The position numbers were made by a program, and so were the translations under genes. The notes under the pieces were generated by a model that was not told where the DNA came from, did no database searches, and worked only from the letters and a program-made list of their open reading frames with translations. From Bdellovibrionales bacterium (GTDB lineage Bacteria; Bdellovibrionota; UBA1018; CAIMNF01), in NCBI GenBank assembly GCA_040380025.1, contig JBEIJY010000005.1, positions 39,397 through 103,396 of the forward strand: a DNA stretch of 64,000 nucleotides. The letters are read 5' to 3'. Below are positions 55,609 through 63,889 of this stretch, one piece after another. Every line of letters starts with the position of its first letter. Within the stretch, counting starts at the first letter, position 1.

Positions 55609-55707
55609 AGTTGACGGATTATATCAGAATAGTTGGAAATGGCAAGCGTCTCCGCTCGAGCACAATGAAAGGGTGCAGTTTGGCGGGTTTGATCTATAGT
55701 TTCCTCC

Positions 55708-59241: not shown

Positions 59242-60444
59242 CTATCGAATGGCGACCGTTTCTTCTGAACGGGAAACTTTTGCCGGGTCCGCCGAATGAT
59301 TCGCGGCCCAGAACACCACCCCGGTGACCAGCAAGCTGTACGCAAGCGCAAAGCTCCGGCGGGAGCGCAAAAAGCGCGCTGGAACCTCGCACGAACGGAT
59401 GGCGCCGACCCGCTCCGAAAGTACGGGGTAGAGGTTTCCGTTCAGGATGCGCAAAAATGAGTTCTTTTGCTCGTGGATTCCTTGCACGGTTTTTTCGAGG
59501 GCCGACACGAGTGCGTCACTGCTTGCTCCCATCGCGACGGCCGCAAGATCGGCCTCATGCTCTTGCCTCGAGACCACGCGGCTAAAAAGAAAGGCCTGAA
59601 GAAGCACCGAGACAGGAATCGACAAGAGCACCACCACGGGTTGCGAATGAAACAAATACACCGCCGGCAACACCACCCAGAACGCCGAGAGAACCATGAG
59701 CCCCACGGCCGAAAATATGCGTTTCGAGGTGTGGTTTTGCTTTAAGTGGGCCGCCTCGTGCAAAAGAACCGCCCGAAGCTCGTCATCGTTCAGGGACTCG
59801 ATGAGGGGGAGGGTGATGAAGAGCGTGCGTCCGAAGGCGCCCACGCCGAATCCCGTTCCGGCCAAGAAGGCATTTTTGACGCTCGAGTTCGGGTCATCGA
59901 CAATTAGCACCTGCGAGAGCAGGACGCCCTCATGCCGGAATGAATCGAGAATTGAATTTTTGAGCTCTGATTCGGCCATCGGGCTGCATCGGTGCTGAAG
60001 GCGCAAAAAGAGCGGCATCAAGAACGGAATCGCAAAGGGCACAAAGAAGATGGCGAGGTTCCACTGGGCAAGAATTGCCGTGATGGCGGCTCCCACGGCG
60101 AAACGCCCTGCCGTTTGCCGGAGCGAGGCCTGGTGCGAGACGAGCGAAACGGGGCGCGCCCGGTTCATCGAGAGCTGGTAGCGCCCTGCGATCTGAAACA
60201 GAATCGAAAACGAGATCACCGCCGCAAAGAGGAGTGCTCCGCCCATGCTCGAGGAGGCTTCGCGGAAGGCGAATCCCCCGGTGAAGAGCGCAACAAAGAT
60301 GAGGGTCGAAAGAAGAGATGTCTTTTTTTGAACCTCGTCGGCAAGGACGGGCCTTTTGTGGTCGAGCCAGGTTTTAAAGAAAAACGGTGCTCCGACAATG
60401 ACAGCAAGACAAATCCAGACAGCAAGTTCGTTCGGGTTCAACAT
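59242..60444 (-). CDS. M48-family membrane zinc metallopeptidase
   Basis: NAF, ELRAVLLHEAAH (HExxH), QEHEAD; multiple TMs; GGAGG RBS before ATG 60444. Confidence 0.85.
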   Translation of the reverse strand: MLNPNELAVWICLAVIVGAPFFFKTWLDHKRPVLADEVQKKTSLLSTLIFVALFTGGFAFREASSSMGGALLFAAVISFSILFQIAGRYQLSMNRARPVSLVSHQASLRQTAGRFAVGAAITAILAQWNLAIFFVPFAIPFLMPLFLRLQHRCSPMAESELKNSILDSFRHEGVLLSQVLIVDDPNSSVKNAFLAGTGFGVGAFGRTLFITLPLIESLNDDELRAVLLHEAAHLKQNHTSKRIFSAVGLMVLSAFWVVLPAVYLFHSQPVVVLLSIPVSVLLQAFLFSRVVSRQEHEADLAAVAMGASSDALVSALEKTVQGIHEQKNSFLRILNGNLYPVLSERVGAIRSCEVPARFLRSRRSFALAYSLLVTGVVFWAANHSADPAKVSRSEETVAIR

Positions 60445-60506
60445 CCGTGTCCTCCCGAGAACCTTCTCGGCGGGGAGGGGGATTTGTTGAATGGGCAAAG
60501 ATTGCC

Positions 60507-60706
60507 AACTGCCCCCTTTGATTGCGCTTTTTTGATGGAGGGGGATCGGGAGAGGTTCCTGGAATCATTCCGTTTTTACCCCCATGCCGCGTCCTGCGGC
60601 CTCGCTTGCGCGCGTCACGCGCTCGCGAGAGTCGGGAAAAAAGGAATGATTCCAGAGACCTCCCCCGATCCCCCTCCTTGATCAAGCACAATCAAAGGGG
60701 GCAGTT
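60507..60706. repeat. 200-bp fold-back element A (long stem capped by two hairpins)
   Basis: 60507-24 and 60689-706 form a perfect 18-bp inverted repeat; 60537-50/60664-77 (14 bp) and 60561-71/60643-53 (11 bp) also pair; inner hairpins at 60586-600 and 60601-629. Confidence 0.93.
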
Positions 60707-61615
60707 TGGAAGGAGCACCGTGTTGTGATAGCGCACGTAGATCGCCAGATGGTCCATGAGTCGGTCCTTGAGCTTGGTCGTGCACCAGGTCTTCCGGAAG
60801 AGCCGATTGATGTTCGCCCGAAGCATTGCGCAGGTGTGATTCAGCGAGAAGAGCGGATCAAAGCCGCCCTTCTTGATTTCGCCCTGCCCGGTGTGCGATC
60901 CGCGGAGCCCCGGGTGCTGGATGTGGCTTGCATGAGGTAAATGTTTTTTCACAAACATCGGATAATGCGGATTCTGATCCGACTCGATCACGACTTCAGG
61001 ACTCAGAATCCGTTTCGATTGCTTAAAGAGGCTCTCCCAGCCCTCGCGCCTGAGGTCTTTTCGCTTTCCGTATTTCTTGCGCGCGATCTTTGCCAGGGGC
61101 CCGTTCGCCGGCATCTGCGAGGCCTGAAAGCTTAGAATTTCGCGGGTTTTTTTGTTCACCATCAGGGTGACGCTGATGGGTTTGCAGCGAGTGTGCTCGA
61201 AGGTCTCCAGGTCGTCGAATTGCACTTCGGTGATCGAGTGGGGCTCAATCATTTGAAGCCATCGGTTGTGATCCTCCCTCGCGCGTTTTGAGACGAGCCG
61301 GAACTTCCGCACGACGGTCTTCCGATTCAGCCCTAGATGAATCGCCATTCTTCTTTGGCTCATGCCTGACGAGAACAGCTCCCAGACGAGCGAATTGTAT
61401 TCCCGCTTTTTCTGCCTGTAATCGGGCGAGTGGGTCGCGCTCGAGAAGTGTGTGCCGCAGTTCCGGCACAGATAGCACTGGAGTTTCCTACGGTCCCACA
61501 GTCGATAGAACGTCCCTTTTTTGACGATTGGTCTGAATCCCGGACCCTGGTTTTTTTCGGGATGGATCAGGGACGGGCTTAATTTACAGTTCGGGTTCGG
61601 GCAGCAGCGGTTCAT
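60692..61615 (-). CDS. IS1/IS1595-related transposase-like protein (Zn finger, HTH, RNase H-type catalytic domain), 307 aa
   Basis: CPNPNC...CRNC; MSQRRMAIHLGLNRKTVVRK HTH; VQFDDLETF; IESDQNPHY; LRANINRLFRKTWCTTK...YHN resembles the IS1 InsB C-terminal motif. Confidence 0.8.
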   Translation of the reverse strand: MNRCCPNPNCKLSPSLIHPEKNQGPGFRPIVKKGTFYRLWDRRKLQCYLCRNCGTHFSSATHSPDYRQKKREYNSLVWELFSSGMSQRRMAIHLGLNRKTVVRKFRLVSKRAREDHNRWLQMIEPHSITEVQFDDLETFEHTRCKPISVTLMVNKKTREILSFQASQMPANGPLAKIARKKYGKRKDLRREGWESLFKQSKRILSPEVVIESDQNPHYPMFVKKHLPHASHIQHPGLRGSHTGQGEIKKGGFDPLFSLNHTCAMLRANINRLFRKTWCTTKLKDRLMDHLAIYVRYHNTVLLPNCPL

Positions 61616-61627
61616 GCCAAGGCTAAG

Positions 61628-61643
61628 GCAGGAAAAATGCCAA
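61628..61643 (-). promoter_or_regulatory. Candidate sigma54 (-24/-12) promoter of the transposase
   Basis: TTGGCATTTTTCCTGC has GG-N10-GC spacing; the ATG begins 13 nt after the -12 C. Confidence 0.55.
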
Positions 61644-61651
61644 TCAAATCC

Positions 61652-61848
61652 AAACTGCCCCCGTTCATTGTTCCCGATACCGGATGCGGATGAGCGAAGT
61701 GTCGGAAACAATTTCGGGTTTGCCTCCGAGCTGAACACTCCGGCCTTGCTCTCGCTATTCTGGCTCGCAAGAGTCAGCAAAAGCAAATCGTTTCCAACAC
61801 TTTGCTCATCCGCACTGCCAAGCAAGGAACAATGAAAGGAGGCAGTTT
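61652..61848. repeat. ~197-bp fold-back element B (long stem capped by two hairpins)
   Basis: 61652-74 pairs with 61826-48 (2 mismatches); 61685-714 pairs with 61785-814; inner hairpins at 61714-29 and 61730-78. Confidence 0.92.
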
Positions 61849-61854
61849 TGTTTT

Positions 61855-62184
61855 TCAGAGCCGACGAATCTCCGCGATCATGCGTCCGTGTCTGTGGAGT
61901 CGCACGGGAGTGCCGCTCAGAACCCGCTCCAGGATCTCTCCGGTTTTGTTTTTCAGCTCGGTGGTGGAGTAGCTCGCCGTATTCAGCTCTTGTTGGGCAT
62001 GAATCCACGTTTCCAGATTCAAGAACGATTGCACGGGCAAACCGGATTCGGGCAGGATGCCATCGGTCAGAATGAACTCCATCGCGTGTTTGAACGAGAT
62101 TCCCGGAAAGCTCCCGCGGCGGATCTCTTGTTTCAGGTTCTCGATCAAAACGGAATTCAGACAGCTCGAAAGTTCTTTATTCAT
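61855..62184 (-). CDS. Protein with C-terminal Phd/YefM antitoxin-type DNA-binding domain
   Basis: YSTTELKNKTGEILERVLSGTPVRLHRHGRMIAEI matches the Phd/YefM pattern; GAGG RBS; starts 7 nt after fic. Confidence 0.7.
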   Translation of the reverse strand: MNKELSSCLNSVLIENLKQEIRRGSFPGISFKHAMEFILTDGILPESGLPVQSFLNLETWIHAQQELNTASYSTTELKNKTGEILERVLSGTPVRLHRHGRMIAEIRRL

Positions 62185-62191
62185 AAGGCCC

Positions 62192-62821
62192 TCACTTCAG
62201 TCGGTTTGCAAAAAATCCGGTCAGCGCACTCAGGTCGCCCTGATTTGCTCTTTCCAGCGCCTGTAAGTGCTCCAGTTTGTCGCTAGAGTAAAAAACGAAA
62301 TTCTTTTTCCATTTCCAGTGAAACCAATACGCGATCAAGATCCGGCCGATTCTTCCGTTTCCATCCTCAAACGGGTGAACTCGCTGAAACTCATAGTAGA
62401 GTGCGGCACCCGTCTCGTACGGGGTGGTTTGTTCCTTCTGGTTGAAATGATCGATCCATTTGCGCATGAGGGACGCGACCTTGGCTGGGGATTCATAGTC
62501 AAAGCGACGACCATCGGTCAGATGGGTGAAGTTTCGGGATGACTTCCAGCGGCCATGCTCTCCCGGGAACCCTGAAAAAAGTTTTGCATGAAATGCCAGA
62601 ATCAAGTCCTGCGAGAGAAACGGGGACTTTTCAAACTCCCGGATGATCCACTCGACGGCCATGCGATAGTTCAAGAGTTCTCGGGATTCCGAGACGGGGT
62701 GCCCAAGGATGGTTTTGCCCGCAAGGACGCTCCTTGCCTCGGATTCGGTCAGGGTAGAGCCCTCCACCAAGGTGGAGCCGATGAGTAAGGATTCCTCTAA
62801 GGACTGTAAATTCCACGACAT
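62192..62821 (-). CDS. Fic-family protein (class II, N-terminal inhibitory motif)
   Basis: Canonical HPFEDGNGRIGR; STLVEG matches (S/T)xxxE(G/N). Confidence 0.92.
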   Translation of the reverse strand: MSWNLQSLEESLLIGSTLVEGSTLTESEARSVLAGKTILGHPVSESRELLNYRMAVEWIIREFEKSPFLSQDLILAFHAKLFSGFPGEHGRWKSSRNFTHLTDGRRFDYESPAKVASLMRKWIDHFNQKEQTTPYETGAALYYEFQRVHPFEDGNGRIGRILIAYWFHWKWKKNFVFYSSDKLEHLQALERANQGDLSALTGFFANRLK

Positions 62822-62856
62822 TTAACTATTTTAGCTAAAATAGCTAAATTAGTCAA
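62821..62856 (-). promoter_or_regulatory. Leaderless sigma70 promoter of fic with a palindromic operator
   Basis: TTGACT-17-TAAAAT-6 nt-ATG; perfect 18-bp palindrome CTATTTTAGCTAAAATAG (62826-62843). Confidence 0.8.
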
Positions 62857-63889
62857 TTAGGTCAGGGGAGTTTGCGATCAATGTCTCAAGCCGCCCCGTC
62901 ACTGTCTCGACCACCTTCTCAAACGGCTCCCTAAGCGCCACTCCCGCCGCATACTCGTGGCCTCCGCCGCCCAAGTCCATGGCCACTTGGTTCACGACGA
63001 TCTTGCCCTTCGACTTGATCGACACCCGCACGGTCCGGCCGTCGTCCTCTTCGCGAAAAAGGCACACAATGTCGGTGTCTCGAAGCAGCAAAAGCAAATT
63101 CAAAAACGACATCGTGTCATCGGCGCTCGCACGAAACTGCCGCCGAAGATCAAGCCGCATCTCCATCCAGGCAAGGCGGCCGTTCTGCGAGGTGCGCGTA
63201 TTCTGCAACACAATCCCGAGCAGTTGCACATGCGAGAGTTCCTTCGTGCTGTAAATCTGCTGGTACACCTCTTCAGGGTTCACACCGAGCTCGATCATGT
63301 GGGCCGCGATTCGGTGCGATTCGGGAGTGGTGCGCGCGTACCGAAAGCTGTTCGTGTCGGTCATCACCGAAACATACAGCCCGACCGCGAGGTCCGAATG
63401 GATCGGTACCAGATTCATCGATAAAAACAGCTGATACAGCAACTCCCCGATCGAGCTCGAGCGCACATCCGAAACAATCAACGCATGGGCCGGCAGGCGG
63501 GGGAGCTCCTGGGCCGCGGTGACGAGGTCCGGATGATGATCTAAAAACAGAATCTTCTTTGCCCGATCTTTAAGCGCGCTCCAAACGGGGCCCAGACGTC
63601 GTGGGTCGTTCGTGTCGACGATGATCCAAAGGTCGAACGCGCTCCAGGCCTCATCGGGGGTGGGACTCAAAAGGAATTCCCCCGAGGAATCCAAAAACCG
63701 GTAGCGGCCGGGGAGGGGATCAGGATTATGCACGCGCACCTCTTTGCCCGCGCGCTTCAGGTAATGGTACAGGGCCGTCTCGGCGCCGAGGCCATCGCCA
63801 TCGGGCTGAACGTGGGTCGAAATCACGATCTTCGAAGCCAGGCGGATGGCGTTTTGCAGTTCGACGAATTCAGGATTGTTTTCGCTCAA
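62849..63889 (-). CDS. nrnA: DHH-family phosphoesterase (NrnA-like nanoRNase/pAp phosphatase)
   Basis: THVQPDGDGLG, VDT, LDHH, TDTNSF, GGGGHEYAAG; TTG start uncertain. Confidence 0.88.
   Translation of the reverse strand: MSENNPEFVELQNAIRLASKIVISTHVQPDGDGLGAETALYHYLKRAGKEVRVHNPDPLPGRYRFLDSSGEFLLSPTPDEAWSAFDLWIIVDTNDPRRLGPVWSALKDRAKKILFLDHHPDLVTAAQELPRLPAHALIVSDVRSSSIGELLYQLFLSMNLVPIHSDLAVGLYVSVMTDTNSFRYARTTPESHRIAAHMIELGVNPEEVYQQIYSTKELSHVQLLGIVLQNTRTSQNGRLAWMEMRLDLRRQFRASADDTMSFLNLLLLLRDTDIVCLFREEDDGRTVRVSIKSKGKIVVNQVAMDLGGGGHEYAAGVALREPFEKVVETVTGRLETLIANSPDLID

Follow-up and report, generated by a model that had tools for sequence, protein, structure and literature searches.

Organization of the Locus

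The analysed stretch (the window) comprises 64,000 nucleotides of the Bdellovibrionales genome designated here G000, whose contigs carry C-numbers, its relatives being numbered from G001. Near its end, a transposase gene lies between two fold-back cassettes, and the whole unit of cassette, gene, and cassette (1341 bp) is placed between the genes of an M48 peptidase and a DHH/DHHA1 phosphoesterase. The features of the region are as follows:

59242–60498, − strand: M48 peptidase gene, flanking host gene (context)
60507–60706, + strand: left (gene-downstream) fold-back cassette, a MITE of 200 bp with terminal repeats at 60507–60524 and 60689–60706
60537–60677, no strand: inner stem of the left cassette, with arms 60537–60580 and 60634–60677, 89% complementary
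60580–60635, + strand: conserved core (about 55 nt) of the left cassette, a three-way junction of two small hairpins with the stem tip
60692–61615, − strand: transposase gene, 307 aa (P0001), with zinc ribbon, HTH, and RNase H core
61628–61641, − strand: sigma-54-type GG-N10-GC motif, a putative promoter ending 12 nt before the ATG
61653–61847, + strand: right (gene-upstream) fold-back cassette, 195 bp, in the orientation of the left one
61855–62821, − strand: flanking cargo, consisting of a Phd/YefM-like ORF (61855–62184) and a Fic-domain ORF (62192–62821)
62849–63889, − strand: DHH/DHHA1 phosphoesterase gene, flanking host gene (context)

The four copies of an end motif that an earlier note on this DNA had placed at 60507 (+), 60706 (−), 61653 (+), and 61847 (−) were all found there, and the two long palindromes that they close were confirmed against 200 dinucleotide shuffles per cassette, none of which was as good in either case (0/200; z −13.7 for the left cassette, 60507–60706, and −7.1 for the right one, 61653–61847). 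The inner inverted repeat of 14 bp (60697–60710 against 61649–61662) is perfect, as had also been described, and the reported absence of a target duplication holds at both cassettes, where the best direct repeat is of 3 bp; none is visible in the sequence compared from the outer flanks of the sandwich either. A solo copy on contig C42 shares 86% identity with the left cassette, whose inner end supplies the stop and the last five codons of the P0001 gene, the stop lying inside the inner repeat. The right cassette shows a more diverged core (61724–61777), and it ends 37 nt from the transposase ATG on its inner side and 7 nt from the stop of the Phd-like ORF on the other.

A 21.7-kb contig from run X1 covers the whole locus without a gap and with 6 differences, which argues against misassembly, with X1 possibly being the source sample and hence no independent check. 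The listed differences between the window and this contig fall at 61094–61226, within the transposase gene, and mixing with, or conversion from, plain IS copies is a possible cause. In addition, 5 kb away from the sandwich, a lone end repeat was seen in the space that separates two genes (55663–55680, −).

The Transposase and Its Family

The search for relatives of P0001 identified 4030 among 4232 candidates, with the named genome records largely from Bdellovibrionota. P0001 itself scored 37.5 bits against the NCBIfam IS1 model (cut-off 100), over residues 42–166 only, and 100 of 100 aligned family members matched this model, one of the 100 also giving a weak match to NF033547. In profile comparisons, the N-terminal 70 columns matched the IS1595 protein of ISAchd1 with a probability of 91.6, covering the zinc ribbon and HTH only, and the catalytic half gave no profile match to any annotated IS1 ORF. 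Judged from these comparisons, the P0001 family is formally outside IS1, its members being mostly unnamed. The sequence search of the PDB with P0001 gave no match, and its predicted model (pLDDT 82.4) aligned with ISCth4 (Z 14.6, rmsd 8.2, 269 residues aligned), Hermes (Z 11.2), and integrases (Z about 10). As modelled, P0001 is an enzyme with a zinc ribbon, an HTH, and a predicted RNase H (DDE) fold.

IS1 family transposases carry a D-D-E catalytic triad. Among 150 distant representatives of the P0001 family, the near-invariant residues include D134 (146/150), D213 (147/150), and N259 (138/150), from which we infer a catalytic centre D134/D213/N259, N259 being the third member by its helix position after D213; as E246 and D253 are conserved as well, the third ligand is not fixed. 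Codon changes between P0001 and a plain copy amount to 27 synonymous and 8 non-synonymous in residues 214–302, and to 10 of each in residues 1–35. P0001 departs from five of 95 near-invariant columns (mean 1.0 and maximum 6 in other members), and the five departing residues are also present in plain sisters. The open ORF, the candidate catalytic residues, and the mainly synonymous change would fit a functional protein, which does not in itself assign selection to the sandwich. A literature search in which subscription journals were thinly covered, and a MITE census (PMC11602168) was available in part, did not find the P0001/cassette family, so that a prior description is possible.

Plain IS Copies and Sandwiches

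Among the full-length loci, 66 had 330 nt of flank or more, and 16 with less were set aside; the 66 comprised 55 plain copies of about 1 kb, eight without a repeat pair, two two-sided sandwiches, and one with an upstream module plus its own end. Both two-sided sandwiches are in G000, one in the window and the other on contig C12; in the short-flank set, locus L085 has its left end replaced by an upstream module. Homologues without fold-backs, which the earlier note had held to speak against its own reading, therefore prevail, with 55/66 loci being plain IS without modules. The terminal repeats of the family's elements begin with AACTG. In the 55 plain loci, the outer repeats are oriented as the cassette ends are, and thus it is the outer repeats at 60507 and 61847, not the inner pair, that stand in IS-end orientation. 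The inner pair was rejected as the IS ends, as it reads away from the gene, opposite to plain members.

The nearest relatives of P0001 (83–89% identical) end in the ordinary way and are multi-copy in G000, and homology with the plain IS breaks off at the border of each window cassette. G000 contains two full family genes together with fragments of the plain multi-copy sister, and matches per relative numbered 13 at most. Among 273 proteins compared, the only ones to end by reading into an inward repeat are P0001 and two variants of it, one differing by a single residue and the other 97% identical. Residues 125–302 of P0001 differ from a plain-type protein at only 4 positions, and the 97% variant carries a patch common to plain copies, the family proteins being visibly mosaic.

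Plain copies with intact ORFs and ends were found at two orthologous sites in four species, G001, G007, G011, and G016 (L083, L086, L088, L091; L084, L087, L089, L090), with synonymous change about twice the non-synonymous, and long-term residency of these copies is possible. One of the two sites lies directly after a short-chain dehydrogenase-like ORF. IS copies of two clades (L008 and L077) follow the stop codon of one and the same host gene at a distance of 2 nt, a repeated use of one insertion site; the C-terminus encoded by this gene presumably resembles a Fis-type HTH. Near the end of L042 (G024:C17), a right end is joined to a left end through a 13-nt spacer repeating the left flank, either as a tandem copy or as a circle junction.

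Further sandwiches were sought in several ways. The search of G000 brought up no long, truncated transposase with cassettes on its flanks within a contig, and none of the transposase loci examined in G002, G010, and G013 was a two-sided sandwich, though the cassettes of these genomes carry cores. The metagenome pattern scan, whose reach among family members is undefined, gave two matches, neither of them a sandwich; one shows an unpaired repeat-like word after the stop. The pattern for read-through junctions in the genus matched the window and one chance sequence and missed C12, so it is insensitive.

A Putative Sigma-54-Type Promoter Motif

GG-N10-GC is the consensus of sigma-54 promoters. 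This motif ends 10–14 nt before the ATG in 24/57 family copies (1.3% of shuffles), and a relaxed form is present in 50/56 copies (2.3% of shuffles), with the upstream cassettes ending directly outside it. A scan for sigma-70 at the transposase start gave nothing, and rpoN was found in G000. The position of the motif suggests a leaderless transcript. Sigma-54 promoters are described as requiring an upstream activator (PMC6524683), and a family-wide promoter of this type would tie transposition to host enhancer proteins. Around the cassettes themselves, no strong sigma-54 motif was found within 200 nt of 49 copies, where only 0.13 were expected.

A Dispersed Family of Cassettes

The motif search of G000 gave 103 ends and 30 pairs, 23 of the pairs 195–200 bp apart, and 89 matches came from a profile built on the central 55 nt, of which 33 had both ends, 14 a single end, and 10 neither, the other 32 being cut by contig ends. 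The genome-wide check on the end motif, as the earlier note had proposed it, revealed a family of hairpin-forming cassettes that are fixed in length, scattered over the genome, and bounded by the same ends as the transposase family. They are short (about 197 bp), gene-free, and present in many dispersed copies, and, as they have their terminal repeats in common with a large IS1/IS1595-like family, they are MITEs. Plain IS ends on C46, C38, C20, C40, C23, and C5 begin with at least the same 10 bases as cassettes, G002 likewise has cassette ends paired with those of local IS, and in both genomes the cassette ends track the IS subtype. A cassette match was detected in three of the 16 other genomes of the genus, and core-bearing cassettes in G002, G010, and G013, making four species with G000; the exact core pattern was present in 2/201 genomes of the phylum.

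Direct repeats of 10–13 bp flank 5/32 cassettes (period 13 in four, 12 in one) and are absent at the other 27, a length of at least 7 bp being reached in 29 of 5000 random pairings. These repeats would correspond to a duplication of 9 bp to which each end adds two variable terminal bases. Since the cassettes are gene-free with IS ends, dispersed, and in a minority accompanied by target duplications, they can be regarded as non-autonomous passengers. Among the IS copies, 44/45 were without a long target duplication. The search for target duplications swapped between copies found none among 7021 pairs, a weak test with a pattern that is one base off for many ends. In addition, cassette ends were located within 20 nt after host stop codons for 16 of 30 inward-reading ORFs (a loose pattern with no null).

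Variants of the cassette were also seen. End-bounded modules of 174–196 bp lack the core at L131 (3762–3957), L085 (58–231), and L078 (about 2003–2187), so the size is kept without it; cores with an extra insert of about 55 nt in their second hairpin are present in L005 (about 1100–1360; G000:C40:12672–12782) and at G000:C40:2427; and, in L169 (G000:C13:34748–35283), a coreless cassette of 80 bp lies 19 nt after the stop of a Y1_Tnp-like gene. The comparison of the cassette with Rfam gave no known RNA family, only sub-threshold matches of the miRNA hairpin type. Finally, carriage of the transposase or cassettes by viruses was rejected, as the viral sequences searched yielded no relative of P0001, and the one core match among them looked unrelated.

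Arm Pairing and the Conserved Core

In 49 copies from G000, the arms 11–40 nt from the core are 87–92% complementary within a copy and 55–62% complementary to those of other copies (background about 50%), and the cores are 89% identical. The same arm behaviour was observed in 23 copies from G002, G010, and G013, with cores 85% identical to those of G000, and 55/71 predicted pairs covary in 16 chosen copies. A cassette in L055 (about 1400–1660) has, instead of the terminal repeat, a right arm complementary to the 3′ end of the tRNA-like sequence next to it. This arm, together with the paired arms retained in 8/10 cores without ends, fits copying between arms. The correction of arms by template switching is already in print (PMC5941160). 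The mismatches of the inner stem are biased by strand, with 55 A·C against 28 G·T and, in a second set, 48 against 24, the copies not being independent; this 2:1 excess of A·C hints that pairing may matter on one strand too, as pure DNA copying predicts no such bias. The cassettes offer a clean natural case in which arms stay paired while their sequence drifts.

A role of the arms as guides to other genes was considered and rejected: 41 short matches were found off cores, the long ones at other cassette ends and the remaining ones, viewed as a group, mostly of 16–18 bp.

A Second Sandwich on Contig C12

The transposase of C12 is 63% identical to P0001 and sandwiched likewise. Five modules of one end subtype are located within about 3 kb of it (L001 1886–6629; G000:C12:40885–45628), and 9/13 ends of one subtype cluster near it, making this the densest spot of G000 (10 ends against 0.54 expected); the window gene has no halo of ends beyond its own four. 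In quick trees, P0001 groups with plain-ended proteins and the C12 protein with P0023, and a single sandwich clade, defined by architecture and tested after the first tree had been seen, was rejected (p-AU 1e-8). The 3′ junction lies 3 nt after residue 302 in both sandwiches, and in the window, on C12, and in L085, the upstream modules stop 33–38 nt short of the ATG. The upstream modules of C12, L085, and L078 are without core, and the C12 cassettes are coreless while the ORF is intact.

The two sandwiches look separate yet convergent, with the reservation that conversion among these mosaic genes could obscure the separation. The identical 3′ junction could also derive from one old origin followed by gene conversion, and, as cassette ends are often placed just after host stops, the 3′ convergence may reflect target preference and not selection. 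No second copy or target duplication was found for either sandwich, a weak test in a family most of whose copies lack a duplication, and no excision, circle, or inversion joint was detected in four contig sets, rare variants being dropped from contigs.

The Interval between the M48 and DHH Genes in Relatives

The loci of the M48 and DHH genes were each obtained from 14 of 16 genus genomes with flanks of 1.5 kb, several of them on separate contigs. The comparison of orthologous loci suggested by the earlier note revealed neither a sandwich nor a transposase between the two genes in the relatives fetched. The two genes lie side by side in G005 and G008, and inserts that vary from case to case part them elsewhere; G013 carries its own cassette, and G002 a coreless module of 196 bp upstream of the M48 gene. 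The Phd/YefM-like and Fic pair was not found in the M48 and DHH loci fetched from relatives. By this comparison, the interval is an insertion hot spot.

Origin of the Sandwich

Neither the left nor the right end proper to the IS is present at the locus; cassette ends take over immediately outside the promoter motif on one side and immediately past the last conserved helix on the other. We therefore favour, as the probable explanation, that the ends of an IS gene were replaced by two MITEs of its own family, the intact gene now being a putative helper or part of a composite. Two MITEs would have landed at the edges of the IS gene, and the IS ends would then have been lost, either because the unit jumped by its two outer MITE ends, as a composite carrying its own transposase, or through adjacent deletions driven by the MITEs. 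Separate cases would converge because only end points sparing the promoter and the ORF stay expressed. The intact enzyme would move single cassettes, with a preference for those close by, and might also move the 1341-bp unit as a whole; if the inner pair were used, deletions or inversions would result and not ordinary transposition. The arms would be kept complementary by template switching between them, and the core may be conserved for some binding or processing role. The earlier note had suggested a resident transposase that mobilizes or inverts short cassettes, or an IS with its ends embedded in hairpins. This reading is supported in part: in its favour, the dispersed cassettes share their ends with the transposase family and C12 has a second sandwich; against it, most homologous loci are plain IS and the nearest relatives are plain and multi-copy. 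As to the embedded ends, the fold-backs are indeed at both gene edges, but the ends of the IS itself are gone and those of cassettes stand in their place.

A resident RAYT-like system with a DDE fold, in which the sandwiched gene is immobile and kept for maintaining cassettes that serve the host, seems unlikely to us. It would account for cassettes that agree with descriptions of REPINs (PMC3116915) in being extragenic, constant in length, and free in arm sequence while the arms still pair, for cores that keep 85% identity between species with M48 proteins of only about 51% identity, for the clustering of ends at the C12 transposase, where the cassettes are coreless and the ORF intact, and for the plain copies at orthologous sites in four species. 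However, RAYTs are characterized as single-copy HUH enzymes that do not jump, keep the same locus, and follow the host phylogeny (10.1101/2021.07.10.451892), whereas the sisters of P0001 are plain-ended and multi-copy. Moreover, the three other genomes with core cassettes have no two-sided sandwich among the transposase loci examined, the four with resident copies gave no cassette match, and neither match of the metagenome scan was a sandwich. A neutral pile-up at the M48–DHH hot spot, trimmed by deletions and with an ORF that is young or renewed by recombination, we hold to be similarly improbable. The inserts of the interval do vary by species, as in G013 and G002, the 4 differences in residues 125–302 and the plain patch of the 97% variant would suit a recent or renewed ORF, and, with 44/45 IS copies lacking a long target duplication, rearranged flanks are normal. 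Chance trimming is harder to reconcile with two two-sided cases in G000 and a third, one-sided one that all stop at the promoter edge, with the lack of long cassette-flanked truncated transposases within contigs, and with an ORF still open next to a right cassette whose core has decayed.

We give very little weight to the core being a separate element, moved by another enzyme such as an IS200-like Y1 transposase or acting as a portable sigma-54 enhancer, with the IS ends secondary. The core is better conserved than ends or arms, 10/57 untruncated cores have no recognizable ends, a Y1-like gene is present in all four core-bearing genomes, and the upstream core of the window lies 109–162 nt from the ATG, a distance that we take to be enhancer-like. 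Against this, Y1-like genes occur in 11/17 genus genomes, seven of which have no cassette match, the upstream modules of C12, L085, and L078 lack the core, and no strong sigma-54 motif was found around the 49 cassettes, with only 0.13 to be expected there. A Y1 transposase as partner of the cassettes was likewise left without support, as none of the 16 Y1 loci fetched contained a core. Beyond the replacement of IS ends by MITEs, a more speculative reading, to which we assign a low probability, is that a DDE-fold IS family is moving toward a state like that of REPIN/RAYT, in which transposase genes repeatedly shed their ends, come under sigma-54 control, stay put, and maintain local 197-bp hairpins with self-corrected arms, the core being a protein-binding module and possibly a transposase enhancer. 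If a second enzyme class repeatedly yields transposase genes bracketed by MITEs, it would provide a test of the passage from selfish IS to resident helper.

Comparison with Known Systems

Members of the IS1 and IS1595 families resemble the P0001 family in the zinc ribbon, the HTH, the RNase H core, the size of about 1 kb, and the short terminal repeats. In contrast to them, the P0001 family has a near-invariant Asn at what would be the position of the third acidic residue, ends that start with NN-AACTG, and a conserved sigma-54-type motif. The cassettes, in turn, are similar to the NEMIS/Correia, ERIC, Nezha, and bcr1 MITEs, being gene-free and intergenic, with a long stem-loop and terminal repeats shared with an IS, and compensatory changes are also described for bcr1 (PMC3184786). 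They differ in that their arms are nearly free in sequence yet 87–92% self-complementary, that the core is conserved between species, and that a target duplication is kept in only 5/32.

As in TIME-COMP and other MITE-bounded composites, in which two directly oriented MITEs surround a passenger gene (PMC13367494), the window locus has two MITEs of the same orientation bounding a gene. Here, however, it is the cognate transposase itself that is carried, reduced to its promoter and ORF and with its stop in a MITE end, and mobility of the unit is putative. Adjacent deletions and missing duplications have precedent (PMC11708052).

With REPIN-RAYT systems, the cassettes and their transposases have in common fixed-length hairpin doublets, compensatory changes in the arms, a flanked transposase gene, and local clustering. 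That system is described as one that arose rarely, possibly once (10.1101/2021.07.10.451892), and the proposal of the earlier note, that the locus is its DDE analogue, was borne out only in part. P0001 has a predicted DDE fold and no Y1_Tnp match, hence is not an HUH enzyme; its family is multi-copy, with autonomous plain-ended sisters; some cassettes show target duplications; and no orthologous sandwich was found in other species. In conclusion, the locus is an unusual variant on the theme of an IS accompanied by miniature parasites, shows some traits of a host-resident system, and falls outside REPIN-RAYT.
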